Shown one piece after another: positions 2-54,724 of a stretch of DNA of 64,000 nt (its first letter is position 1; each line of letters starts with the position of its first letter). A program made the position numbers and the translations under genes. The notes beneath the pieces are model-generated. The model did no database searches. It was not told the origin of the DNA and saw nothing but the letters and a program-made list of their open reading frames with translations. This DNA is from an uncultured Acidobacteriota bacterium (GTDB lineage: Bacteria > Acidobacteriota > Vicinamibacteria > Vicinamibacterales > UBA2999). Where the stretch lies: positions 1,283,876-1,347,875 of the forward strand of contig CAVRKI010000004.1 of assembly GCA_963721715.1 (NCBI GenBank), read 5' to 3'.

Positions 2-1957
2 AGCGCCGCGGGCGATCCCCTGATGCAGTGGAGCCACACGTGGCTCGATCCCTGGATCGCGGGCGCGTTTCCCTGGCTCTATGCCATCGACACGCGCTGG
101 CTGATCGGCATCCTGGCGGCGCTCACCACGGGCGTGATGGCCTGGGCCGGGCGCCACTTCTACACACGGGCGTGGTCGGCCTTCCGGCACCACGCCGCCG
201 ACATGAACACGCTGGTAGCGGTCGGCACGGGAGCAGCGTTTCTCTACTCGCTCGCCGCCACGCTGGCGCCGGAGGCGTTTCTATCGAGGGGCCTGGCCCC
301 GGACGTCTACTACGAGGCGGTCCTCTTCATCATCGCCCTCATCCTCGTCGGCAACATGTTCGAGGCCCGCGCCAAGCGCGAGACGTCCACCGCCCTCCGC
401 GCGCTGGCCAACCTGCAGCCTCTGACAGCGCGCATCGCCCGCGGCGGCGGCGACGTGGACGTCCCCCTGTCGGAGGTGGTGACCGGCGACATCGTCGTCG
501 TGCGGCCGGGGGAGCGACTGCCGGTGGACGGCGTGGTGGTGAGCGGAGCGACTGCGGTGGACGAGTCGATGGTCACGGGCGAAAGCGTGCCGGTGTCCAA
601 GCGGGAGGGCGATGCCGTGATCGGCGGCACCATCAACCGCACGGGCGCCCTGCGCTACCGCGCCCGCAACCTCGGAGCCGACAGCGTGCTCAGCCAGATC
701 ATCCGCCTGATGCGCGACGCACAAGGGTCGCGCGCGCCCATCCAGCGGCTCGCCGACCGCATCAGCGGCGTCTTCGTCCCCGTCGTCCTGTCCCTGGCCG
801 TGGCCACATTCGTGGTGTGGTTCGTCGCCGTGGACGAGGCGCCGCTCGTTCGCGCGTTTGCCGCGGCAGTGGCGGTGCTCATCATCGCCTGCCCGTGCGC
901 CATGGGCCTGGCGGTGCCCACCGCTGTAATGGTGTCGACTGGCCGCGGTGCACAGCAAGGGGTGCTCATCAAGGGCGGCGAGGCGCTGCAGCGCGCGGGC
1001 AATGTCACCACCGTGGTGCTCGACAAGACCGGCACCATCACCGAGGGTCGCCCCACGGTGACGCGCATCGCCGTGGCCCACGGCGCGGCGGATGAAGCCG
1101 GCACGCTGTCACTCGTGGCCAGCCTCGAGGCCGCCTCCGAGCACCCGCTGGCCGATGCGCTCGTCCGCGCGGCAGAGGCGCGGCAACTGTCGCGTTCTCC
1201 CGTGTCGGGGTTCCGGTCGATCACCGGCCAGGGCGCAACCGGCCGCGTCGACCGTCACGATGTCGCAGTCGGCAATGCGTCGCTGATGACCAGCCTTGGC
1301 GTCGATGTGTCACCGCTGCGCGACACCGCGGACGCCTGGGCGGCGCAGGCGGAGACCCCCGTCTTCGTCGCGGTGGACGGGCTGCTGGCCGCGGTGGTCG
1401 CCATCGCGGACCCGGTGAAGCCCGGTGCCCGCGATGCCGTTCGACAGCTCCGGGCCTTGAAGCTGGACGTGGTCATGCTGACGGGCGATCATCAAGCCAC
1501 GGCCGAGGCCATTGCGCGGGCGGCCGGCATCGAACGAGTAGTGGCCGACGTGCGCCCCGAGGGGAAGGTGGCCGAGGTGCGGCGCCTCCAGGCCATGGGC
1601 CAGGTGGTGGCCATGGTCGGGGACGGCATCAACGACGCCCCGGCGCTGGCGCAGGCGGACGTAGGAATGGCCATCGGCACCGGGACGGACATCGCCATGC
1701 AGGCGAGCGACATCACGCTGATGCGCGGCGACCTGGCGGGCGTCGCGGCAGCCATTCAGCTGTCGCGCCGCACGATGCGGACGATGAAGCAGAATCTGTT
1801 CTGGGCGTTTGCGTACAACGTGCTGGGCATCCCCATCGCGGCCGGGGTGCTCTACCCCGCCTTCGGGCTGCTGCTCAGTCCCATCCTGGCCAGCGCGGCG
1901 ATGGCCGTCAGTTCGGTCAGCGTGGTCTCGAACAGTCTGAGGTTGCGACAGGGATAG
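2..1957 (+). CDS. copA: Copper-translocating P1B-type ATPase, 5' partial (N-terminal metal-binding domains lie upstream of the window)
   Basis: Reading frame stays open to base 2. Motifs [11 protein letters not shown] (CPC), [21 protein letters not shown]. Stop TAG at 1955-1957. Confidence 0.95.
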
Positions 1958-1986
1958 GGAGCAGGGATCAGGGAGCAGGGAGCAAA
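1951..1986 (+). repeat. Heptad-phased G-rich array (GGATAGG GAGCAGG GATCAGG GAGCAGG GAGCAAA) spanning the copA stop and the copZ SD
   Basis: Direct reading. Five GGG runs at 1951, 1957, 1964, 1971 and 1978, separated by 3-4 nt. Period 7. Confidence 0.85.
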
Positions 1987-4060: not shown

Positions 4061-5314
4061 CGCAACAGCCCTTCGAGGGCGTCGGCGGCGCGCGAGGCGC
4101 CCCGTTCGGCCGCCACCACTGCCGCCACGTCACGGGCCCGCGCGGCGACGCGCTCGTCAGCGAGCAGTTCGCCGAGGGCCCGCTCGACTGCCGCCACCGT
4201 GTAACGCCGCGGATAGACCGTCCGCGAGATGCCCAACCGCTCCACGCGATGCGCGTTGTCCGGCTGATCGTGCGCGTGCGGCACCACCAGCGTCGGCCGT
4301 CCGGAGGCGAGCGCCTGATGCAGCGTTCCGGCACCGCCCTGATGGACGATGGCCGCCGCCCGGGGAAACAGCGCGGCATGCGGCGCATAGTCCACGGCCA
4401 GCACGTCCGCGTGTGCCACGCGCGGCCGGTTGTGGGAGTGACGCCCCACCAGCAACACCGCGCGGCGCGACAGCCGCCGGGCCGCCGCTGCACTCACCTC
4501 GTAGAACGAGCCCGCGGCTTCCACCGCCGACGTGCCGAGCGTGAACACGATCGGCGGCGCCCCTGCGGCGAGGAAGCGTTCGAGCTCCGCGGAGACCTCG
4601 GGCGTGGCGGCGCCATTGAAGAGGATGGGGCCCGCGAGCACGGTGTTGGCCGGCCAGTCCGGCTGGGGCTCGGCCAGCACGCGCGAGAACAGCGCGAGCA
4701 CGAGGGCCGGCGAGTGCTGCCCCGCGAGAATGGGGTTGTTCCCTTCAGGAAGCCCGAGGGACGTCCGGAATCGCTGCACCGGCCCTATCCATCGCCGCGT
4801 CACGCGGTCCGACAACCACACGAAGGCGCGGCTGACCGCTCGCGAGCGGACCATCAGCGGGTGCAGCCACGGCGCGGGAGGCGGCACCACGGGGTCCGAG
4901 ACCGAGAAGAACGACATTGGCGCCAGCACCGTCGAGGCCCAGGACATCCGCCGCTTCTGCGCGACGATGGGCCCGACCATCGAGGCCGGGTGTGTGACGA
5001 GCAGGTCCGCTCCTTCGACGGCCGCGGTGAGGTCGTCGTAGCTGGCCTGCAACTGCGGAATCAGCAACTCCGCGAAGATCGTCTCGGACCCCCTCGCCGG
5101 ATCCATGATCCGCGCGGTGAGCGCGGCATCGTCGGGGTCGAGGTCGGGGCGGATGGCGCGCAAACGCCAGGCCTTCGCGCTCGACGGATTCGCGGAAGAT
5201 GCCGGGCATCGCGAGCACCGGATGATGACCCCGGCGCTGCAGTTCCAGGCCCAGGCCGATGTAGGGATTGACGTCGCCGAACGAACCGAAGGTCGTGATG
5301 ACGATGCGGGACAT
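4057..5314 (-). pseudogene. GT1-family (MGT/UGT-like) glycosyltransferase with one +1 frameshift
   Basis: The N-terminal ~50 aa (MSRIVITTFGSFGDVNPYIGLGLELQRRGH, ATG at 5314) are in a different frame from the remaining 368 aa, which carry the GGAGTLHQALASGRPTLVVPHAHDQPDNA sugar-donor motif. The frames join in GCGCGCC at ~5156-5162. Confidence 0.75.
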
Positions 5315-7589: not shown

Positions 7590-9536
7590 CTACCGGAGGC
7601 GGGCAGCCCGGGTCCTGAGCGTGTCGGCGAGTGCCTTCAGCCGCATCTGGTCGCGGCCCGACGCCGACGCGGCGTCGGCGTCCAGCTGCGTCGCCAGGGT
7701 GCTCAGTTGATCGGCCGCGGCGCTCGCTCCGCGATCGCGCGGCGAGCGCATCTGTTCGGCCCGATCCATCGCCGTGACGACCGCCTTGGCGCGCTCGGGC
7801 TGAAGGCCCTTGCTGCGGTTCAGCTGGTCGACATACGCCTTGGCCACCACCGCCGTCGCCGGCCAGGTGACCTTGGGCTGCTGCTGCGGGTTGAACTCCT
7901 CGTGCCGCACCAGCATCGCGGCGTCGATCTCGTTCTGCGACAGGTGCTCGCTCGGCAGCAGGCGGAAGATGTCGATGCCGCGCGCGATCTCCGACGCATA
8001 GATGTTGCCGTTGTACCAGTAGGTGGACCAGTACCCGCCGGTGATCAGGTTCTTGGCGTCGAGGGGACCGCGATCGAAGAACGCCACTTCGACGGGCTTG
8101 GCCGAATCGGTGAAGTCGAACACCGACACGCCGCCCTGATACCAGCCCTGGACCATGATGTCGCGCCCGGGCACCGGAATCAGCGAGCCGTTGTGGGCCA
8201 CGCAGTTCTCCTGATCGGTCTGCGCCGCCGGCATCTTGTAGTAGCCCTTGAACTGCAGCTTCTTGTCGACGATGTCGAAGATCGCGTTGGCGCCCCAGTT
8301 CGGCAGGTCGGTCGCGCGGCAGCGCGGCCGCGTGCCGCCGCCCCACTCGTCGGTGAAGATGACCTTGGTGCCATCGTTGTTGAACGTGGCCGAGTGCCAG
8401 TAGGCGAAGTTCTTGTCGAACGCCGCATCGAGCCGCTTGGGGTGCACCGGATCCGAAATGTCCATCAGGATGCCGTTGCCCGAGCACGCACCGGCGGCCA
8501 GCCCGACCTCCGGGTACACCGTGATGTCGTGGCACTGGTTGGTCCGGCTGGTGCTCTGCGTGCCGGGGCCGTGGTCGCCGCCCTTCCAGAGGCCCGCGAT
8601 GTTCCCGGCCTCGTCGGCGAAGATGCGCGGCCGGTTGATGATCTTCGCGGTCTGCGGCGCCGCGAGCGGCACCTCGATCACGTCGATGCTGAAGAGCGCC
8701 GTATTCCCGTCCTTGTCCGGCTCCTCGCCCGAGCAGCCGTCGAGCTCCTCGCCCGAGCGCACCGAGCCGGTGCCCGAGCCGTAGATGTAGATGCGCGACT
8801 TGTCGTTCTGGTCCGGCACCAGCGTGTGCGTGTGCGAGCCACGGCAGGTCTGCACGGCCGCCACCTGGCGCGGCTTGCGGAGATCGCTGATGTCGAAGAT
8901 CCGGACGCCGCGGAAACGCTCCTTGCTCACCGTGTCGGTGATGCCCTGCACGCCGCAGTCGACGCGGCCGCGGGTCTGCTCCACCGACATGAACAGGAGG
9001 TTGCCGTGGACCGACACGTCACCCTGGCCGCCCGGGCAGACCACCGAGGCGAGCAGCTGCGGCTTGCGCGGGTTCTCGACGTCGTAGGTGTTGAAGCCGT
9101 GGAAGTTGCCCACCCACATGTTGGTGCCGGCAAACGCGATGTCGGAGTTCGCGAAGTCGAGGCCACCACCGCCCGGACGCGGCGGTGCGGGCTTGGCGCC
9201 GGCAGCCGGCGCGCCGGACGCCGCGGGTGGCGCGGGAGCCGCCGGAGCCGCAGCCCCGCTCGCTCCCTCGAGCGGCTTGCCATCCGCCGGCGGAGTGGTC
9301 CGTTCCGGTCCGGTCGGCTCGCCTGCCGGCTGCTTGGGATCGAAGAACCCCTCAGGCCGCGGCAGCGTCGCCGTCAGCTCCATGTTGCGCGCGGCCACGC
9401 CGGCATCGCGCAGGCCGGGCTTGAGGCCCACGCGCGGATCCTTCGGATCGGCCGGCGCCTGCTGAGCCGCTCCCACCAGCACGACGCCGCCCAGCAAGGC
9501 GGCGACCGTCCACACCCGTGTCGTCACAGACTTCAT
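7590..9536 (-). CDS. Secreted LVIVD-repeat beta-propeller protein
   Basis: 648 aa. Signal peptide, Pro/Ala-rich linker and repeated xxIFDISD-type strands (GVRIFDISD, GILMDISD, GVSVFDFTD, GIDIFRL). ATGA overlap with the upstream gene. Confidence 0.7.
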   Translation of the reverse strand: MKSVTTRVWTVAALLGGVVLVGAAQQAPADPKDPRVGLKPGLRDAGVAARNMELTATLPRPEGFFDPKQPAGEPTGPERTTPPADGKPLEGASGAAAPAAPAPPAASGAPAAGAKPAPPRPGGGGLDFANSDIAFAGTNMWVGNFHGFNTYDVENPRKPQLLASVVCPGGQGDVSVHGNLLFMSVEQTRGRVDCGVQGITDTVSKERFRGVRIFDISDLRKPRQVAAVQTCRGSHTHTLVPDQNDKSRIYIYGSGTGSVRSGEELDGCSGEEPDKDGNTALFSIDVIEVPLAAPQTAKIINRPRIFADEAGNIAGLWKGGDHGPGTQSTSRTNQCHDITVYPEVGLAAGACSGNGILMDISDPVHPKRLDAAFDKNFAYWHSATFNNDGTKVIFTDEWGGGTRPRCRATDLPNWGANAIFDIVDKKLQFKGYYKMPAAQTDQENCVAHNGSLIPVPGRDIMVQGWYQGGVSVFDFTDSAKPVEVAFFDRGPLDAKNLITGGYWSTYWYNGNIYASEIARGIDIFRLLPSEHLSQNEIDAAMLVRHEEFNPQQQPKVTWPATAVVAKAYVDQLNRSKGLQPERAKAVVTAMDRAEQMRSPRDRGASAAADQLSTLATQLDADAASASGRDQMRLKALADTLRTRAARLR

Positions 9537-10219
9537 TTCTGCAGCTCCTTCAGCAACGCGCCCATCCGATCGATCTCCATCTGCTGATCCGCCTCGACGT
9601 CCGAGGCGAACGCGAAAATGTCGCTGTCCTGCCCCGCCCCCGGCGAGCCGAACAGCTCCCGCACCATCGTCAGGGCGCCGCCGTGGTGCCGAATCATCCC
9701 TTCCAGGAACAGCCGATCGAACGCCACACCCTTGGCGGCGGCCAGCTGGGTCATCTGCTCCTGCGTCAGCATCCCGGGCATCAGCACCGCGTCGTGCTGG
9801 TGATGCGCGTGGAGATCCGGCAGGGTCTGGCCACGCCCTTTCAGCCATTCCTGCATCATCTGGATTTCGTCGAGCTGCGACACTTCGATGCGCTTGGCCA
9901 GCAGCTTCATGTCCTCGCGGCTCGTGCGGGTCGGCAGCAGCGCGGCCATTTCGATGGCCTGCTGGTGGTGCCCGATCATGCCTTGCATGAACTTCACGTC
10001 GGCGGGCGTGAATTGGACCTTGGAGAGGTCGGTGGCATCGGCCACGCTCACCGCGCGGCCGGCCTGTCCGGGGGCGCCGGGCTGGATGAGGCCGGGGCCG
10101 CCAGCCGCGGAACCGCCACTTGCGGGGCTGGCGCCAGCCGTGGGGCCGGCGGTGCGACACGCGGCGCCCGTGGTCACGAGCAGGCACAGGGCCGTGATGC
10201 GAAGGGTTTTGGTCGCCAT
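9533..10219 (-). CDS. DUF305-family lipoprotein (His-rich four-helix protein)
   Basis: 228 aa. Lipobox-like LLVTTGAAC. IGHHQQAIEMA and IRHHGGALTM motifs characteristic of DUF305. Confidence 0.75.
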   Translation of the reverse strand: MATKTLRITALCLLVTTGAACRTAGPTAGASPASGGSAAGGPGLIQPGAPGQAGRAVSVADATDLSKVQFTPADVKFMQGMIGHHQQAIEMAALLPTRTSREDMKLLAKRIEVSQLDEIQMMQEWLKGRGQTLPDLHAHHQHDAVLMPGMLTQEQMTQLAAAKGVAFDRLFLEGMIRHHGGALTMVRELFGSPGAGQDSDIFAFASDVEADQQMEIDRMGALLKELQK

Positions 10220-10336: not shown

Positions 10337-12070
10337 CTACCGGCCGGGGCCGGGGGTGGTGCGTCCGCCGCGCGGCTGCGGCGGGTTCTTCAGGAGCCGG
10401 TACTGGCTGATGCCGGCGTTCACCTTGAACTCGATGCCCATGCGCCCGATTTCGGCGGTGGCCTTCACCGGATCCCCGGTGACGCCCGAATCCTTCGGGC
10501 CTCCCCACGGGGTGATCTGACTCTTGCGCACACCAGCCGGATAGACGTGCAGCATCTGCGACGTGTCGCTGATCCCGGCGTGACTGCCGACGATGGTGTC
10601 GTCGTAGCCGAAGGCGGCCAGCATCCAGGCGCGATAGTGATCGCGGCCCCCCTCGTAGTAGTCCGTCAGCGCATAGACCTTCGCGCCGTCAGCCGCCCAT
10701 TCCTGATTGAGCTTCGTCGCCACGGCCGTCATGCCGGCCTGGTTGCCGCCGCTGTCGCCGATGAACAGGATCTCGGTGAAGCCGTGGGCCTTCAGGCTCC
10801 GCGCCGCGGCGTCGAGCAGCATGTCGTAGGCCGGAGACGGGAGCGAGATGGCGCCCGGATTCTGCCGGTCGGGATCGCCTTCCGGCACGTACTGGATGAC
10901 CGGCGCCACGAGCGTGTTGCCAAGGCGGCGCGCCATGATGTTGGCCGCGTGCGTGACCACGTAATTGTGCTTGCCGAGCACCATGTGGTACCCGTTCTTC
11001 TCGGTGCCGCCCGTCGGGATGATCGCGGTCCTCTTCCCAGCCTTCAGCGCGTCGCGCGTTTCTTCCCACGTCAGCTCGTCGATGAACACGGTGTCGGGGG
11101 CGTTGGTCGGGGTCTTCCCCGCTGGCGCCGTCTCCATCGTCGGCGGCCGCGGCCCCGACGGCACCGGCGGACGCGCGCCGCCCCGACCACCGCCGCCTGC
11201 GGCGGGCGCGGGCGGCACTGGCGGCTCGGCGCCGCTGGCCATGCGCTTGTACTGCGCCAGCGCGTTGTCGATCTTGATCTGCAGCAGCTGCCGGCCGACC
11301 TCGGGCGAGGACTTCGACTGGTTGATCCCGCTCACGCCGTTGTTCTCGTAGTCGTTGCCGACGAGACGATCGCGCCGGATGTGCTGAGGCGCCACGAACA
11401 GCAGCTCAGACGTGTCCAGAATGTTGGCATGGTTGCCCACCTGCGCCTCGGGCACGCCGAGGAACTTGGCGGCGAACACCTCCTGGTCGCGATGCGCCTT
11501 GGTGTAGTAGTCGTCCACCCAGTAGGCGGTGGCGCTTCCCTTCCACAGGGCATTCAGCTGCTCGGCCGCGGTGCGCATGCCGGTGCGGTTGCCGCCCGAC
11601 TCACCCAGGAACACGACCCTGGTGAACCCGCCGGCCTTGAGGCTGCGGCCGGCATTCACCAGCAGGTCGACGAAGCGCTCCTCGGGCAGCGTGATGGTGC
11701 CGGGCTTGCCCATGTGGCCGCCGACCGTCTCCCAGCTGCCTTCCGGCACATAGGTGACGACCGGCGCGACCAGCGTCCGGCCCATCCCGCGGGCAATCTT
11801 GTCGGCGGTGTAGGCCATGACGAACTTGTGCTCGCCGTCGACCATGTGCGGGCCCTTCTGTTCGGTGCCGGCGGTGCCGATGATGACGGTGGTCCACCCG
11901 TCCTTGACGAGGTCGCGGGCCTCGGCCCACGTCAGCTCTTCGAGCATCACGGTGTCGGGTGGCTTGCCGGATGGCGCGGTGGCGGGCGCATCGGCGGGGC
12001 GCTGCGCGGCCACGGTCATCGTGGTCAACAGGCAGGCACCGAGGAACGTGAACAAGGCGCGGTGATTCAT
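10337..12070 (-). CDS. Secreted protein with two tandem creatininase-family (creatinine amidohydrolase fold) domains
   Basis: 577 aa from ATG 12070 (GGAGAC SD). Signal peptide MNHRALFTFLGACLLTTMTVAAQ. Two homologous halves (LEELTWAEARDL..GTEQKGPHMVDGEHKFV and IDELTWEETRDAL..GTEKNGYHMVLGKHNYV) joined by a Pro/Gly-rich linker. Confidence 0.7.
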   Translation of the reverse strand: MNHRALFTFLGACLLTTMTVAAQRPADAPATAPSGKPPDTVMLEELTWAEARDLVKDGWTTVIIGTAGTEQKGPHMVDGEHKFVMAYTADKIARGMGRTLVAPVVTYVPEGSWETVGGHMGKPGTITLPEERFVDLLVNAGRSLKAGGFTRVVFLGESGGNRTGMRTAAEQLNALWKGSATAYWVDDYYTKAHRDQEVFAAKFLGVPEAQVGNHANILDTSELLFVAPQHIRRDRLVGNDYENNGVSGINQSKSSPEVGRQLLQIKIDNALAQYKRMASGAEPPVPPAPAAGGGGRGGARPPVPSGPRPPTMETAPAGKTPTNAPDTVFIDELTWEETRDALKAGKRTAIIPTGGTEKNGYHMVLGKHNYVVTHAANIMARRLGNTLVAPVIQYVPEGDPDRQNPGAISLPSPAYDMLLDAAARSLKAHGFTEILFIGDSGGNQAGMTAVATKLNQEWAADGAKVYALTDYYEGGRDHYRAWMLAAFGYDDTIVGSHAGISDTSQMLHVYPAGVRKSQITPWGGPKDSGVTGDPVKATAEIGRMGIEFKVNAGISQYRLLKNPPQPRGGRTTPGPGR

Positions 12071-12145
12071 GGGCAGGTCTCCGGTTTGACCCGCCAAGAC
12101 TACACGAAGGGAAGGATCCGGTGTCCGGAGTTCGCGCGGCAACTC

Positions 12146-12559
12146 CTAGGACGAGGGTGTGACGAGCACGACCTCGTCGACGACGATGGACCAGAGCAGG
12201 CCGGAGGAGTTCACCATCAGGTTGTACTGACGTGGATCGTCCTCGAAGTTGAAGGTGCCTTCGCCGACGCCACGCTGGTCCACCACTTCCTGCAGCGGGC
12301 GGCCGCTGACCGCGCTGTGCACGGTGAGATGGAACATGCCCGCGGGCCTCCCCGGCTCGGGACGCGTCGCCCAGCGGATGCGGAACTTGCCGGAGTTGCT
12401 GACGAATCCGATCGTGTGATCGCCGCTGCCTTCCCACGCACCCACTTGTTGTGGAATGCCGATCGGCGCGCGTGGAGGTGACGTGGATCGACGACAGTCA
12501 ACCCCGAGGGCGACTAAAGTCGCGACCCAGACGTAACACCACAGTTTTCGACGGGTCAT
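12146..12559 (-). CDS. Small hypothetical exported or lipo-protein
   Basis: 137 aa from ATG 12559. Hydrophobic N-terminus with Cys (LVALGVDC). No recognisable family. Confidence 0.45.
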   Translation of the reverse strand: MTRRKLWCYVWVATLVALGVDCRRSTSPPRAPIGIPQQVGAWEGSGDHTIGFVSNSGKFRIRWATRPEPGRPAGMFHLTVHSAVSGRPLQEVVDQRGVGEGTFNFEDDPRQYNLMVNSSGLLWSIVVDEVVLVTPSS

Positions 12560-12639: not shown

Positions 12640-13665
12640 TTGCGCGCACCACTTCCCGTTCGAGGTCCGTACTCTGTCGCCGTCGTGCAGGCGGCACCGG
12701 TCGCGTTCGATGTCGAACGCACGTTGCAGAAACTTGGCGATCTGACCGCCGACGCCGGCCGGCGCGGCGCACATCTCGCGCTGTTCCCGGAAGCGTTCGT
12801 GTCGGGCTATCCGCGCGGACTCGATTTCGGCGCGGTCGTCGGCTCGCGCACCGCCGAAGGCCGCGAGCAGTTCCGCCGTCACTGGGAAAGCGCGATCGAC
12901 GTCCCCGGCCCGCACGTCGATCGGATGGCCGGTCTCGCCCGCGCCAATCGCGCGCACCTGGTGGTCGGCGTGGTCGAGCGCAGCGGCGGCACGCTGTACT
13001 GCACCGTGATCTTCCTCGGCTCGGATGGCCGCTATCTCGGCAAGCATCGCAAGCTGATGCCGACGGCGTCCGAGCGCCTGGTCTGGGGCTTCGGCGACGG
13101 CTCGACACTCACCGTGGCCGACACCGACATCGGCCGCGTCGGCGCGGTGATCTGCTGGGAGAACTACATGCCGCTGCTGCGCGCGGCGATGTATGCCAAG
13201 GGCGTGGAGATCTACTGCGCGCCGACGGCCGACGCGCGCGCCACCTGGCTGCCGAGCATGCGGCACATCGCGCAGGAAGGCCGTTGCTTCGTGCTCTCGG
13301 CCAACCAGTTCGCCCGCCGCCGGGACTATCCCTCCGACTACCCGACCGAGTTCGGCGACGATCCGCAGACCGTGATCTCGCGCGGCGGCAGCTGCATCAT
13401 CGGACCGCTGGGCGAGGTGCTGGCGGGACCCGACTTCAGCGGCGAGACCATCCTCACCGCGGAGATCGACCTGCACGACATCGCCCGCGCGCGGATGGAC
13501 TTCGACGCGGTCGGCCACTATGCGCGTCCCGACATCTTCCAACTGCTGGTCGACGAGTCGAGCCGCACGCCGGTCACCTTCCACAGCGGACAGCGGCAAC
13601 CCGGGGCGGCGCCGAACGCGCGCGACGTGGATCGCCGCGCCGGCCCACGGCCGGCCGGCCGTTAG
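12640..13665 (+). CDS. Nitrilase / carbon-nitrogen hydrolase family protein
   Basis: 341 aa. Glu-Lys-Cys triad contexts [23 protein letters not shown]. Confidence 0.85.
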
Positions 13666-14126
13666 CCGCGCTGCTTGCGGTACGAGTTCTTCAAGGCGAT
13701 CTTCCCGCCCTGCAGCGTGAACACGTCGCAGCCGTTCACCTCGACCTTCGTGCCGTCCTTCATCGTGCCGGTGAAGGTCCACTCCGAGACCGCGCGATCG
13801 CCGGCGATGAAGTGCGTCGGGTGGTTCCACCGCGCGTCGGCGTAGGTCTCGAAGACCGCGGCATAGGCCCGGCGCACCGCGTCGCGCCCGACGTGCCGCG
13901 TCCCGTTCAGATCCCTGCCCGCGGCCGCCTCGAAGGCGCACTCGGGCGCCATGCAGGCCATCAGGCCGTCCACGTCGTGCCGGTTCCAGGCCGCGGCGAA
14001 CTGCTCGAGCATTGCCAGGGTTCCGGCGTCGGACGCCTGGCCGTTGAATGCCGCGCGGAGTCGCTTCGCCGCGAGCGTCGCCATCAGGCCGGCGATGGCC
14101 GCCGACAGCAGTTGTCGTCTCTTCAT
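13662..14126 (-). CDS. SnoaL/NTF2-like fold protein with signal peptide
   Basis: 154 aa from ATG 14126. [20 protein letters not shown] leader. Pattern [39 protein letters not shown] typical of SnoaL-like proteins. Confidence 0.6.
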
Positions 14127-14153
14127 GGGCGAATGTTGCCATAAACTCGGCGG

Positions 14154-14846
14154 ATGCCCCATCGCGAACGACATCGCACTGACCGCATCGGGTGGCTGCG
14201 CGCCGCCGTGCTCGGCGCCAACGACGGGATCGTGTCCACGGCCAGTCTGGTGGTCGGGGTCGCCGCCTCCGGCGCGGCGCAAGGCGAGGTGCTCGTGGCC
14301 GGCGCCGCGGGCCTGGTCGCCGGCGCACTCTCGATGGCCGCTGGTGAATACGTGTCGGTCAGCTCGCAGGCGGATACCGAGGGGGCCGACCTGGCGCGGG
14401 AGCGCGCGGAACTGGCGACGGACCGCCCGGCCGAGGAAGACGAGCTCACCAACATCTACGCGGCGCGCGGCCTCGACGCAGAACTGGCCCGCCAGGTGGC
14501 GCGCCAGTTGATGGCGCATGACGCGCTGGGCGCGCACGCGCGCGACGAACTCGGCATCACGGCGGAGCTGGCGGCGCGGCCCCTGCAGGCGGCACTGGCC
14601 TCGGCCGCCACTTTCGCCGTCGGTGCGGCGCTGCCGATGGCGGTGGTGGTGCTGGTGCCACCCGCGTCCGTGGTCATGGTGGTGGCGGGTTCATCGCTGG
14701 TCCTGCTCGCGGCGCTCGGCGCGATCGCGGCGGGTGTGGGCGGCGCCTCGGCGCTGGTGGGCGCGGCTCGCGTGGCTTTCTGGGGTGCCCTGGCGATGGC
14801 GGTCACCGCCGCCGTCGGCGCGCTGTTCGGGACGACGGTGGGCTAG
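14154..14846 (+). CDS. VIT1/CCC1-family iron/manganese transporter
   Basis: 230 aa. LRAAVLGANDGIVSTASLVVGV and SMAAGEYVSVSSQ motifs. C-terminal TM bundle. Confidence 0.8.
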   Translation: MPHRERHRTDRIGWLRAAVLGANDGIVSTASLVVGVAASGAAQGEVLVAGAAGLVAGALSMAAGEYVSVSSQADTEGADLARERAELATDRPAEEDELTNIYAARGLDAELARQVARQLMAHDALGAHARDELGITAELAARPLQAALASAATFAVGAALPMAVVVLVPPASVVMVVAGSSLVLLAALGAIAAGVGGASALVGAARVAFWGALAMAVTAAVGALFGTTVG

Positions 14847-14864
14847 GCGGGCGGGCACGGCCTT

Positions 14865-14969
14865 GGGGCTTGAGTCGTGGGGCTTGGGGCTTGGGGTTCT
14901 TGTCTCGGTTCCTGATCCGAGCACTAATCTCCAGTTCCTAGTTCCTAGTTCCTAGTTCCTGATCCCTGC
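14865..14969. repeat. Composite heptad-phased intergenic repeat: GGGGCTT-type array (14865-14899) plus TTCCTAG/TTCCTGA/TCCCTGC array (14935-14969)
   Basis: Direct reading. A 7-nt phase is kept across all 15 units between the convergent VIT and norR stops. On the minus strand the second array reads GAGCAGG GATCAGG AACTAGG x3. Confidence 0.9.
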
Positions 14970-14973
14970 TCTT

Positions 14974-16533
<1,560 letters not shown>

Positions 16534-29566: not shown

Positions 29567-29606
29567 GCGTGACCCCCACGTAGATTCACCACTTCGCTCT
29601 CCCCGC

Positions 29607-29649
29607 CTTGAACTCTTGAACGTTGAACGTTGAACCTTGAGCTTCCACC
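29607..29649. repeat. Heptad array CTTGAAC (t) CTTGAAC GTTGAAC GTTGAAC CTTGAGC in the cyt b / octahaem gap
   Basis: Direct reading. On the mRNA strand it reads GUUCAAC/GUUCAAG x4, 40-80 nt upstream of the octahaem start codon. Confidence 0.85.
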
Positions 29650-36390: not shown

Positions 36391-36672
36391 CGTGACCTCA
36401 CCTGAGGCACAGCCAGACCGCGGACGTCGCCGTGGCTGGTGGCACGACTGGCCTCCACGACGTCTGACCATGCAACTCCCGCGCCTCGGGGCCATGGGCG
36501 TTTCTGCTCCGGCGACCCGCATCCGCCCGCCGGACGCTGCCGACATCCCGACACCCGCCGCACATTCTGCGGAAAACCGACGCTCCTCTCCCGCCAAGAG
36601 GGCGAGTCCGCGTGCAGGCGAGGGCGGAATCCGCGGCACACTGATTGCTGTGTCAGCGGTGTGGCCTTCGCC

Positions 36673-38417
<1,745 letters not shown>

Positions 38418-38418
<1 letters not shown>

Positions 38419-39413
38419 TGAGCGCTGCACTGCCCTGATCGCGACCGCGCCCGCCGCCTGCTCTGGCAGATGGTGCGCATCCGCCGCTTCGAGGAGAAGT
38501 GCGTCGAGCTCTACAGCGCGCAGAAGATCCGCGGCTTCATGCATCTCTACATCGGCGAGGAAGCCGTGGCCACCGGCGTCATCGAGCACCTGACGCCCGA
38601 GGATGCGGTGGTCGCCACCTACCGCGAACACGGCCAGGCGCTGGCGCGCGGCGTGTCGCCGGGCGCGATCATGGCGGAGATGTATGGCAAGGTGGAGGGC
38701 TGCGCGCGCGGCCGCGGCGGCTCGATGCATCTCTTCGATGCAAGGCGACGCGCTTCTACGGCGGCAATGCCATCGTCGGCGGCGGCCTGCCGCTGGCCGT
38801 CGGGCTCGCGCTGGCGGACAAGATGCAGAGCCGCGACGGGCGTCGACCGTCTGCTTCTTCGGCGAGGGCGCGGTGGCCGAAGGCGAGTTCCACGAGTCGA
38901 TGAACCTGGCCGCGCTGTGGCAGCTGCCGGTGCTGTTCGTCTGCGAGAACAATCTCTACGCGATGGGCACGCGCGCTGCGCCATCACCGAGTCGCGTCAC
39001 CGACATCGCCAGCAAGGGCGCGGCCTACGACGTGGCCAGCGCCGTGGTCGACGGCATGGACGTGCTGGCGGTGAGCGAGGCGGCCGCGCCAGGCCGTCGC
39101 GGCCGTGCGCGAAGGCCGGCCCTACCTCCTGGAGTGCCGCACCTACCGCTTCCGCGCCGCACTCGATGTTCGATGCCGAGCTCTATCGGCGCAAGGACGA
39201 GGTGGCGCGAGTGGAAGAAGCGCGATCCCGATCACGACGTTCTTCGGCGCAGATGAAGGCGGCCGGCGTGCTGACCGACGCGGACTACGCCGACGATCGA
39301 GCGCGAGGTCGCGACGCGAGGTCGACGAGGCCGTCGCGTTCGCCGAGGCCGGCACCTGGGAGCCGGTCACCGACCTGACGCGCTTCGTCTATTCGGAGGG
39401 GGCACAGCCATGA
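38418..39413 (+). pseudogene. 2-oxoacid dehydrogenase E1 alpha (TPP) subunit, at least 10 frame changes
   Basis: Segments [99 protein letters not shown] and [13 protein letters not shown] are scattered over all three frames. Confidence 0.8.
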
Positions 39414-40412
39414 GCCGCCGACGCCGATCAGCCCGACGCGACGATGACCTTCCGCGACGCGGTGCGCGAAGGCCTGCGCGACGCGCTGCAGCGCCGATCC
39501 GCGCGTGTTCCTGATGGGCGAGGACGTGGGCCACTACGGCGGCTGCTTCGCGGTGAGCCGCGGCCTGCTGGCGGAGTTCGGCCCCGAGCGCATCCGCGAC
39601 ACGCCGCTCTCGGAGTCCGGCTTCGTCGGCGCCGGCATCGGCGCGGCGCTCGGCGGCATGCGGCCGATCGTCGAAGATCATGACCTGCAACTTCAGCCTG
39701 CTGGCGCTCGATCAGATCATGAACACCGCGGCCACGCTGCTGCACATGTCCGGCGGCCAGTTCAACGTGCCGCTCGTCATCCGCATGGCCACCGGCGGCG
39801 GCAAGCAGCTCGCGGCGCAGCATTCGCACAGCCTCGAAGGCTGGTATGCGCACATTCCCGGGCATCAAGATCGTCACGCCCGCCACGCTCGAGGACGGCT
39901 ACGGCATGCTGGCCACGGCGCTGGCCAGATCCCGATCCCGTGCTGATCTTCGAGAACCAGACGCTCTACAACATGGAGGGCGAACTCGCCGGCCGACGCC
40001 GGCCCGGTCGACCTCCGGCGCGCGGCCATCCGACGCCAGGGCAGCGACGTGTCCATCCTCACCTACGGCGCCAGCCTGCACAAATCGCTCGCAGGCGGCC
40101 GCCGACACTCGCGACGGAGGGCATCGAGGCCGAGGTGGTCGACCTGCGCGTGCTGCGTCCGCTCGACGACGCGACGATCATGGCGAGCGGTGGCAAGGAC
40201 GCACCGCGTGCTGATCGTGGACGAAGGCTGGCGCAGCGGCGGCATCTCCGCGGAGATCAGCGCGCGCATCCACGAGCAGGCGTTCTACGAACTCGATCGC
40301 CCGGTGGCGCGCCTGTGCACCGCCGAGGTGCCGATCCCCTACGCGCACCACCTCGAGGAGGCGGCACTGCCCCAGGTCGACAGCATCATCGCCGCCGTGC
40401 AGGCACTGGTGA
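39410..40412 (+). pseudogene. 2-oxoacid dehydrogenase E1 beta subunit, at least 8 frame changes (3' end uncertain)
   Basis: Segments [94 protein letters not shown] and [17 protein letters not shown] are spread across frames. ATGA overlap with the E1 alpha stop. Confidence 0.8.
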
Positions 40413-43715: not shown

Positions 43716-43894
43716 CTGAGCCTCCTTGGAAGCGGGTGAATGAAGCTGACGTTAGTGAATAAAAGCAAAAAGGGTTCCAACCGGAGGGTCGAACATGGGC
43801 CGGGAATACGTGCGATTCTGCAGAATGGTGGGCCCAGCCGCCGGGATCTCGACAGGAACCAGAGGCAGGCTGGCGGAACAGCAGGGGGGAACGA

Positions 43895-43929
43895 GGGATA
43901 GGGATCAGGGATCAAGCCCCAAGCCCTAT
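43895..43929. repeat. Compact copy of the composite heptad repeat (GGGATAG GGATCAG GGATCAA GCCCCAA GCCCTAT)
   Basis: Direct reading. On the minus strand it reads GGCTTGGGGCTT then GATCCCTGATCCC, the same order as 14865-14969. It abuts the trxC stop. Confidence 0.85.
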
Positions 43930-53835: not shown

Positions 53836-54645
53836 GTGGCGGTGCCCATCTGGCTCCAGTTCGTGGTCGGCTATGCCGTGTACCTGGTCGCCGTGGCATG
53901 GTCGGCGCCGGGCTTCGCGCGGGCGCGCGTCCCCGCGTTGGTCACGCTCGCGGCCAGTCTCGGTCTCGCGAGCGTGTGGCCGCGGCTGGTGTCAGGATCG
54001 GAGCTATCCGCAGCGGCGGCCTGGATCGCCGTGCCCGGACTGTTCGTGCTGGCGACCTACCGGGTGTCCGGAACGTTCTTCATCACCCCGAATCTCGCCC
54101 TCGAGCGTTGGCTGCTGCGCGTGGATCACGACGTGCTGGTGGGCACCGGCCTGCTGCGCGCCTACGGCGCGGTGAAGGCGATGCGCTCGACCTGCGAGTT
54201 GCTCTACCTGCTGGTGTACGCGATGGTGCCGGCGGGCGCGACGGTGCTGGTCATCGCGGCAAGGGCCGACTGGCTGCCGCGTTATTGGGCCGCCGTCTTC
54301 GCCGCCGAGCTGGCATGTTACGGCCTGCTGCCCTGGCTGCAGACGCGCCCGCCCCGCGCGATCGAACCCGCCGCTGCGACCGGCGCAGGAGACGCCTTGC
54401 GGCGACTGAACCTGGCAGTGCTGCAGCGTGGCAGCATCCAGGTGAACACCCTGCCGAGCGCGCATGCCGCCGGCGCGACCGCCCTGGCGCTGGTGATGGT
54501 GGACGCACTGCCGATGGTGGGCGGTGTGTTCCTCGCGGTCGCAATCGGCATCACCATCGCCACGGTGCTGGGCCGCTATCACTACCTGGTGGATGCCCTG
54601 CTCGGTGTGGCCGTGGGGGTGTCGACGTGGCTCTTGGTGGGATAG
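53836..54645 (+). CDS. PAP2-like integral membrane protein
   Basis: 269 aa, GTG start, multiple TM segments. LPSAHAAGATALAL resembles the PAP2 C-terminal motif. Confidence 0.4.
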   Translation: MAVPIWLQFVVGYAVYLVAVAWSAPGFARARVPALVTLAASLGLASVWPRLVSGSELSAAAAWIAVPGLFVLATYRVSGTFFITPNLALERWLLRVDHDVLVGTGLLRAYGAVKAMRSTCELLYLLVYAMVPAGATVLVIAARADWLPRYWAAVFAAELACYGLLPWLQTRPPRAIEPAAATGAGDALRRLNLAVLQRGSIQVNTLPSAHAAGATALALVMVDALPMVGGVFLAVAIGITIATVLGRYHYLVDALLGVAVGVSTWLLVG

Positions 54646-54646
54646 G

Positions 54647-54688
54647 ACCTGGGAACCAGGAGCCAGGAACCAGCGATCAGGGGATGGT
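54647..54688 (+). repeat. Heptad array ACCTGGG AACCAGG AGCCAGG AACCAGC GATCAGG GGATGGT
   Basis: Direct reading. Starts 2 nt after the PAP2-like stop. Shares the GATCAGG core with the other loci. Confidence 0.85.
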
Positions 54689-54724
54689 CGACGGCTACCG
54701 ATTGTCGTCAGCCGGATACCGATG

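Follow-up and report, generated by a model that had tools for sequence, protein, structure and literature searches.

Short tandem repeats with a 7-nt period adjoin stop codons in a 64,000-nt stretch of acidobacterial DNA (the window), probably of Vicinamibacterales origin, and the segment between positions 14,847 and 14,973 raises the question of what such arrays are: copies of one dispersed family, as a first-pass annotation had proposed, or repeats that arose separately at each gene end. Applying TRF to the window revealed period-7 arrays at 1956–1984 (4.1 copies), 14862–14896 (5.0 copies), 14933–14960 (4.0 copies, 100% identical), 43894–43914 (3.1 copies) and 54652–54673 (3.1 copies). These cover all four loci named in that annotation, which had missed a fifth array at 29606–29640. 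A scan of lags 2 to 15 gave four clusters of self-matches at lag 7 and at most one at each other lag from 2 to 13, while the two clusters at lag 14 were the same arrays as those at lag 7. These period-7 arrays are genuine and greatly exceed chance expectation: shuffling the window's intergenic sequence with dinucleotides preserved predicts 0.01 lag-7 arrays compared with 4 observed, a much stronger signal than in shuffled sequence, as had been anticipated.

The period is less strict than first described, with one 6-nt unit at the 1951 locus and one 8-nt unit at 43.9 kb. A GATCAGG core is indeed common to all four named loci; across the window this heptamer has 19 matches (9.8 expected), 5 of them inside arrays. 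Pfam assigned the flanking genes to copA, an HMA (copZ-like) protein, the VIT family, a GAF/sigma-54 activator, cytochrome b, a multihaem cytochrome, thioredoxin-2, a PAP2 protein and prfC, which agrees with the earlier naming of copA, VIT, norR (the sigma-54/GAF activator), trxC (thioredoxin-2) and PAP2. Among the 54 genes called in the window, 20 end in TAG, 32 in TGA and 2 in TAA, TAG being unusually common for a 69% GC genome; because TAG already accounts for 37% of window stops, its excess beside arrays is only marginal. Elsewhere, positions 36400–39650 have weak or no confident gene calls from a codon-usage caller, and GC-rich repeats of period 10 and period 12 lie at 39080–39111 and 39453–39489.

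The 14.8-kb locus consists of two arrays around a non-repetitive middle. On the + strand, five CTTGGGG/GGGGCTT units (14862–14896) start 15 nt past the VIT stop (TAG, 14844–14846); their four GGGG tracts are separated by loops of 10, 3 and 3 nt, and they make up the 5′ arm of a predicted + strand hairpin. The middle (14897–14932) forms the top of this hairpin, with a small stem of its own (CTCGG, 14904–14908; CCGAG, 14917–14921) and a lag-7 identity of only 0.41. The second array, on the − strand at 14933–14971, has the units GAGCAGG GATCAGG (AACTAGG)x3 AACTGG and, in the helix-turn-helix (HTH) frame of the sigma-54 activator, is translated as the final 8 codons; read on the + strand, TRF reports four perfect AGTTCCT units at 14933–14960. 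The idea that 15 units keep a common phase from 14865 to 14969 had to be abandoned: units 5–10 match their neighbors at only 2–4 of 7 positions, and no common phase can be defined because the two arrays differ in their units. The only true internal repeat at this locus is GTTCCTGATCC, whose copies lie 47 nt apart, a distance not divisible by 7.

The end of the activator gene also had to be revised. Its 3′ part is frameshifted in the ORF used for the first-pass annotation, and the frame that encodes the HTH has its TAG at 14945–14947, within the AACTAGG array; the ortholog in a close relative (L081) ends ...LKE-TAG where the window has CAG. The array therefore supplies the activator's stop codon. 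Arrays had been described as lying directly 3′ of stops, and they do abut the stops of the genes named, but the true norR stop is inside its array. The frameshift itself lies at 14945–15200 on the − strand, between the activator's AAA+ domain and the C-terminal HTH, the listed ORF having an out-of-frame tail (...ARFDSG, stop) and another frame encoding the conserved HTH end. Either the assembly is in error here or the gene is a true pseudogene.

At 1951–1985 (+ strand), the units GGGATAG GGAGCAG GGATCAG GGAGCAG GGAGCAA overlap the copA stop (TAG, 1955–1957) and fill the 31 nt that separate it from the HMA/copZ gene (ATG at 1989), the last unit (1979–1985) providing a GGGAG Shine–Dalgarno-like site at the right distance to be the copZ ribosome-binding site. 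The array at 29606–29640 (− strand), which can be written (TTCAAGG/TTCAACG)5 and has the units CTCAAGG TTCAACG TTCAACG TTCAAGAG TTCAAGG, is inside an operon; the stop of cytochrome b lies 20 nt upstream of it, and the multihaem cytochrome gene starts 39 nt downstream. A compact composite occupies 43884–43928 on the + strand (GGGGGG..GGGATAG GGATCAG GGATCAAG CCCCAAG CCCTA), its right end being the thioredoxin-2 stop (TAG, − strand, 43926–43928); it is, as had been recognized, a compact version of the 14.8-kb locus with the same unit order. In the convergent spacer between PAP2 and prfC, the array at 54639–54681 (+ strand; GGGATAG GACCTGG GAACCAG GAGCCAG GAACCAG CGATCAG) starts at the PAP2 stop (TAG, 54643–54645). 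The copA and PAP2 stops, both GGGATAG, are the first units of their own arrays. A two-unit proto-array (CCGGACA CCGGATC) also lies on the − strand at 12114–12128; at the orthologous L081 site there are ~6 units of CCGGATA.

Several small features border these arrays. A 53-codon ORF (MKLTLVNKSKKGSNRR...GGNEG, stop; 43729–43890, + strand) ends at the TAG of the GGGATAG that opens the 43.9-kb array, the same heptamer being present at the copA and PAP2 stops (1951 and 54639). The PAP2 array is separated from the prfC stop by a stretch with a stem-loop, GACGGC...GUCGUC, within GGUCGACGGCUACCGAUUGUCGUCAGCC (54682–54724), and a 14-codon ORF (MVDGYRLSSAGYRC, stop) begins just past the PAP2 array.

The wider sample combined several searches. 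RF3 searched against genome contigs gave L001 (an Acidobacteriota MAG, 85% identity in the RF3 comparison) and L002 (a Vicinamibacterales MAG, 66%) as useful relatives, the other 78 loci being unrelated controls. The N-terminal part of the activator, searched against metagenomes, gave 39 loci at 54–93% identity, several of them syntenic with window positions 7.6–24.8 kb, and 12 more loci in related MAGs came from a cytochrome b search with contig look-ups. The non-redundant set comprised 15 contigs (300.7 kb) that are partly orthologous to each other, with gene calls made in this analysis.

Intergenic arrays on the 15 contigs had periods of 7 (n = 18), 8 (n = 12) or 9 (n = 8), with a few others, while arrays within genes had periods of 6, 9 or 12 in 17 of 24 cases. 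All but one of the arrays with period 7 or 8 lay outside genes. Altogether the 300 kb held 30 arrays of period 7 or 8, plus three of period 14 or 16. Together with the 5 loci in the 64-kb window, this bears out the proposal that the arrays are dispersed and that those first noticed are not the sole copies. Intergenic dinucleotide shuffles for the clade predict 0.01–0.02 arrays, compared with 11 observed at lag 7 and 12 at lag 8. The density of period-7 arrays was 7.1 per 100 kb in the close relatives (the window and L081–L087, 142 kb), 0 per 100 kb in more distant relatives of the activator, norR (138 kb), and 0.73 per 100 kb in unrelated loci (1.37 Mb). The array trait is lineage-specific.

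Placement relative to genes and strand is non-random, as had been suspected from the way the window arrays adjoin stops. Arrays were present in 10 of 34 convergent, 15 of 163 co-directional and 4 of 32 divergent spacers; the convergent excess over co-directional spacers (Fisher p = 0.003) is to be read with the use of our own gene calls and with some loci being mutually orthologous. Where arrays lay within 25 nt of a stop, the sense strand was purine-rich in 21 of 26 (p = 0.0025). In co-directional spacers, a hand tally placed the array block nearer the upstream stop in 9 cases and nearer the downstream start in 2, with 4 blocks filling the spacer. What the wider sample contradicts is the notion of one sequence family: there are 37 different tandem 7- and 8-mers in 300 kb, almost every locus has its own unit, only AAGCCCC is common to two separate window loci, and arrays of period 8, 9 and 13 are found beside those of period 7.

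Comparison of orthologous junctions shows that the arrays expand, contract and swap units fast. The 3′ flank of the activator carries AACTAGG in the window, GGGATCA and (GTGATCTC)3 in L081, (GGAAATAGGAAGCAG)5 followed by ~10 GACCTCAA octamers in L083 and (GGAGGTA)6 followed by a 10-nt repeat in L087; no array was found at this flank in L082 or in orthologs of at most 78% identity. The junction between cytochrome b and the multihaem cytochrome measures 9–13 nt in L121, L123, L125 and L130, 94 nt in the window, with (TTCAAGG)5, and 306 nt in the closest relative, L120, where ~28 GAGTGCG units occupy positions 5064–5300 inside the cytochrome bc operon. For the convergent nitrilase-like (+) and SnoaL-like (−) genes, the two stops overlap in TTAG in the window (13662–13665) with no spacer, and the corresponding spacer is 95 nt of unique sequence in L081 and, in L083, 136 nt made up purely of arrays.

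Convergent MFS and PALP (PALP-CBS) genes are separated by 1 nt in L125; in L121 their junction holds a palindrome of arrays 217 nt long. This near-perfect palindrome (L121 5145–5354) has 7- and 13-nt units, among them AGTTCCT, which is also the window's unit, and its AACTGGA units match the 3′ coding end of the MFS gene, GGGAACTGGAATAG (last codons). With conserved flanks, (GCACCCGA)n is present in 4.6 copies in L126/L127, 7.6 in L125 and 11.1 in L121, spanning three related MAG lineages and answering the earlier suggestion to compare copy number between strains: it does differ. Array copy numbers ranged from 2.6 to 28, with no preference for four units. In L083, two 3′ flanks ~600 nt apart (11567–11728 and 12195–12333) have the same two-part layout: TAG, 10–12 GARNYAG heptamers, GACCCCAR and then 7–10 GACCTCAR octamers. 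This shared layout suggests copying between loci.

One reading of the placement is that the arrays are selected 3′-end RNA elements: a G-rich array and a C/U-rich one behind it would pair as a heptad-phased stem-loop, or the G-rich array would form a G-quadruplex, and either would halt transcription or shield mRNA 3′ ends, above all where genes converge. The excess of arrays in convergent spacers points in that direction. So does some of the predicted folding. The + strand of 14847–14973 reaches −51.3 kcal/mol (z = −1.7), its GGGGCU blocks pairing in register with AGUUCC through G–U pairs, and the 43.9-kb composite can form a hairpin on both strands. Inverted array pairs in relatives fold strongly, with z = −2.6 in L001, −4.4 and −5.7 in L002 and −5.6 in L120, and the L121 palindrome attains −124.8 kcal/mol (z = −14.9). 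The L120 pair, which lies between two co-directional genes, consists of inverted 9-nt arrays at 9425–9453, (CACGAAGGA)3, and 9537–9563, (CCTTCGTGT)3, bracketing ~80 nt and giving a 27-bp stem. The statement that the arrays have little hairpin potential thus does not apply to the + strand at 14.8 kb or to these inverted pairs. Against a 3′-end role, the − strand at 14.8 kb folds worse than shuffles (z = +1.4), the window hairpins have only a slight advantage over shuffled sequence (z = −1.7, −1.5 and −1.2), and the large L083 arrays are less structured than theirs (z = +1.5 to +2.6).

The evidence on G-quadruplexes (G4) is similarly divided. Canonical motifs occur at 1951–1973 and 43884–43910, and similar units form G4 in vitro, but without any regulatory role having been found for them (Rehm 2015, PMC4692102). 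At 14865–14896 the reported GGGG-N10-GGGG-N3-GGGG-N3-GGGG pattern is present, but it fits only a relaxed rule with loops of up to 12. G3 tracts are found in only about half of the window arrays; the AGGAACT, GGAACCA and TTCAAGG arrays have only GG runs and no G4 motif, which makes a quadruplex impossible there. Scanning 14000–16000 for consensus terminators and promoters found nothing, U-tract terminators included; in the L002 spacer, one intrinsic terminator lies between two arrays. Moreover, the same junctions are array-free in close relatives. We considered and rejected both the hairpin (the L083 arrays fold worse than shuffles) and the quadruplex (too few G3 tracts) as a unifying feature, and there is no single structure common to all arrays. 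Selected 3′-end elements are, on balance, an unlikely general explanation, although a 3′ hairpin, quadruplex or ribosome- or protein-binding role is possible for some arrays, and the sense-strand purine bias and the convergent-spacer excess could reflect selection for an RNA role.

The same purine-rich sense strand (21 of 26 arrays) would be expected if the arrays were tandem RNA sites for the anti-Shine–Dalgarno tail or for a CsrA-type GGA-binding protein, serving to hold or recycle ribosomes or to couple translation to the next gene. Many sense units contain AGGA, GGAG or GAGG (for example, AGGAACT, GGAGCAG, GGAGGTA and GGAAGTA), the unit at 1979–1985 is rightly spaced for copZ, and binding of S1, Csp or CsrA has been proposed for TAACTGA repeats (MacGregor 2015, PMC4679880). 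Yet most arrays are in convergent spacers or far from downstream starts, and the motif is absent from GGGGCTT, TTCAACG, GAGTGCG and GCACCCGA. Purine-rich 7-mers hold such 4-mers through composition alone, and neutral seeds drawn from stops and neighboring ribosome-binding sites would give the same unit content. We judge this reading very unlikely.

Highly improbable, too, is a reading in which small non-autonomous mobile elements of a MITE-like or REP-like type insert at stop codons, the arrays being parts of them. The recurrence of two-part composites at two loci in one genome (14.8 and 43.9 kb in the window; both flanks, A and B, in L083) would fit insertion, as would the 217-nt palindrome in L121 against the 1-nt junction in L125. 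However, we found no conserved non-repeat core, terminal inverted repeats or target duplications at the arrays, and no associated transposase; nearly all loci have distinct units, strains show graded copy numbers at the same site, and the L121 units match coding sequence at the end of the neighboring gene. We accordingly set aside a shared sequence family or mobile element as a candidate: units are almost all locus-specific, those of L121 derive from the neighboring coding end, and Rfam gave no match in the window. That the arrays are artifacts of assembly or sequencing is almost certainly wrong. At least one frameshift in the window, in norR, does suggest an error-prone assembly, but comparable arrays are present in independent JGI, ENA, NCBI and Logan assemblies, made from different samples with different assemblers, at orthologous and other junctions.

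We consider it probable that the arrays are long simple-sequence repeats, that is, bacterial microsatellites with 7-nt and sometimes 8-nt units, that are born by slippage and occasionally co-opted. Most likely they represent a known kind of fast-changing microsatellite of slippage origin and not a new functional element. Arrays would arise in place at gene 3′ junctions through replication slippage, seeded by sequence near the stop codon and, within operons, by the ribosome-binding site of the next gene as well, with inverted copies and palindromic forms coming from occasional template switching. They may persist at junctions because a unit that is not a multiple of three would be lethal within genes and repeats would be disruptive in promoter regions. 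In a tightly packed genome, a grown array would make up nearly the whole spacer and so would touch the stop codon. There would be no shared sequence-specific function, and individual arrays would be put to secondary use, as putative examples of which we count the stop codon of the sigma-54 activator, the copZ ribosome-binding site and the 3′ hairpins of paired arrays after VIT and trxC.

Two observations sit poorly with slippage. The 14.8- and 43.9-kb loci of the window share two unit types in the same order, and the L083 flanks, 600 nt apart, share TAG-(GARNYAG)n-GACCCCAR-(GACCTCAR)n. Such shared composites are not predicted by independent slippage from random seeds and need gene conversion, inter-locus copying or a common constraint. 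It is conceivable, though we think it improbable, that the arrays are instead self-renewing 3′-end elements on stops or the product of a lineage-specific templated process. Terminators in Acidobacteriota are poorly known. If the arrays were 3′-end elements, transcript ends would be defined or protected by purine-rich sense arrays, many of them with a complementary or C-rich array behind; if they came from a templated process, the recurrence of two-part composites at different loci of one genome would be accounted for.

On the preferred reading, slippage microsatellites, the puzzling excess of heptanucleotide repeats in bacteria now extends to Acidobacteriota, which are abundant in soil but have been little studied. 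Orthologous junctions give an unusually clear series, 0–13 nt in one relative corresponding to 94–306 nt of repeats in another, and this series shows that arrays originate at stop codons, have a rapid turnover and can supply a stop codon or ribosome-binding site. The arrays reveal no new mechanism. In practice, they can shift gene ends in annotation, they offer length-polymorphic markers for strain typing, and short-read MAGs are likely to collapse them.

Heptamer arrays have been encountered in several other bacteria, and we found no literature description of such arrays for Acidobacteria. The STRR heptamers of filamentous cyanobacteria comprise a few fixed units in high copy number: STRR1 CCCCA(A/G)T, STRR2 TT(G/T)GTCA and STRR3 CAACAGT. 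Like them, the arrays described here are tandem and non-coding, and the window's CCCCAAG is one base from CCCCAAT; otherwise, the window units differ from the STRR consensus sequences and are diverse, and the host is an acidobacterium. REP and BIME elements share the short 3′ intergenic spacers, and some paired arrays here can likewise fold as hairpins, but the present arrays are direct tandem repeats without a conserved palindromic unit or sequence family.

The TAACTGA repeats of Beggiatoaceae, cyanobacteria and Bacteroidetes (MacGregor 2015, PMC4679880) are intergenic tandem heptamers with a similarly patchy phylogeny, present in 2–6 copies per set. Their unit is a single fixed one, and they lie a few nucleotides 5′ of start codons, whereas the arrays reported here are stop-adjacent, have many units and include no TAACTGA. 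Geobacter metallireducens has heptanucleotide elements (GGGACCG x4 at 49 sites, and MTYCTGA x5; PMC2700814) that resemble ours in having four to five tandem heptamers dispersed through the genome; in contrast to our locus-specific, intergenic arrays, each is one multi-copy sequence, found by BLAST and present also in genes.

Placement is shared with the G-rich GGGNATC-type heptamers of Rehm 2015 (PMC4692102), such as GGGAATC in Xanthomonas and GGGGA(C/T)T in Nostoc. Those arrays lie on the coding strand, mostly no more than 50 nt past stops, frequently come as convergent (inverted) pairs, are rare between divergent genes, and differ in length and sequence between the same genes of related species. 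The arrays described here have the same post-stop placement, including overlap with the stop, and likewise include convergent pairs, with 4 of 32 divergent spacers occupied. Some units are also alike (GGGATCA and GGGAGCA here versus GGGAATC, and GGGGCTT versus GGGGAYT). The differences are that one unit there occupies ~185 loci per genome, compared with nearly one unit per locus in our 300-kb sample, that quadruplex G3 tracts are present in only about half of the window arrays, and that no four-unit preference is evident.

As summarized in later papers, Mrazek, Guo and Shah (2007) described long simple-sequence repeats with units of 5–11 nt, heptanucleotides being the most abundant, in large high-GC genomes; units that are multiples of three occur in genes and others are excluded from them, a slippage origin is proposed, and the footprint of DNA polymerase is offered as an explanation of the slippage and of the favored unit length. 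With that excess already described there, and the same placement in Rehm 2015, the first-pass impression that the arrays had no described equivalent in high-GC soil phyla cannot be upheld as a claim of novelty. Two differences stand out, namely that some relatives have 8-nt units almost as often as 7-nt ones and that arrays are shown here growing from junctions of 0–13 nt and overlapping stops. The likenesses to Mrazek 2007 are otherwise extensive: short units arranged head to tail (3–28 copies here), with 7 nt the commonest; an abundance above chance; exclusion from genes of units that are not multiples of three; a scattered, lineage-specific distribution among large, high-GC, free-living bacteria; and, as a slippage origin implies there, copy numbers that change between close relatives.
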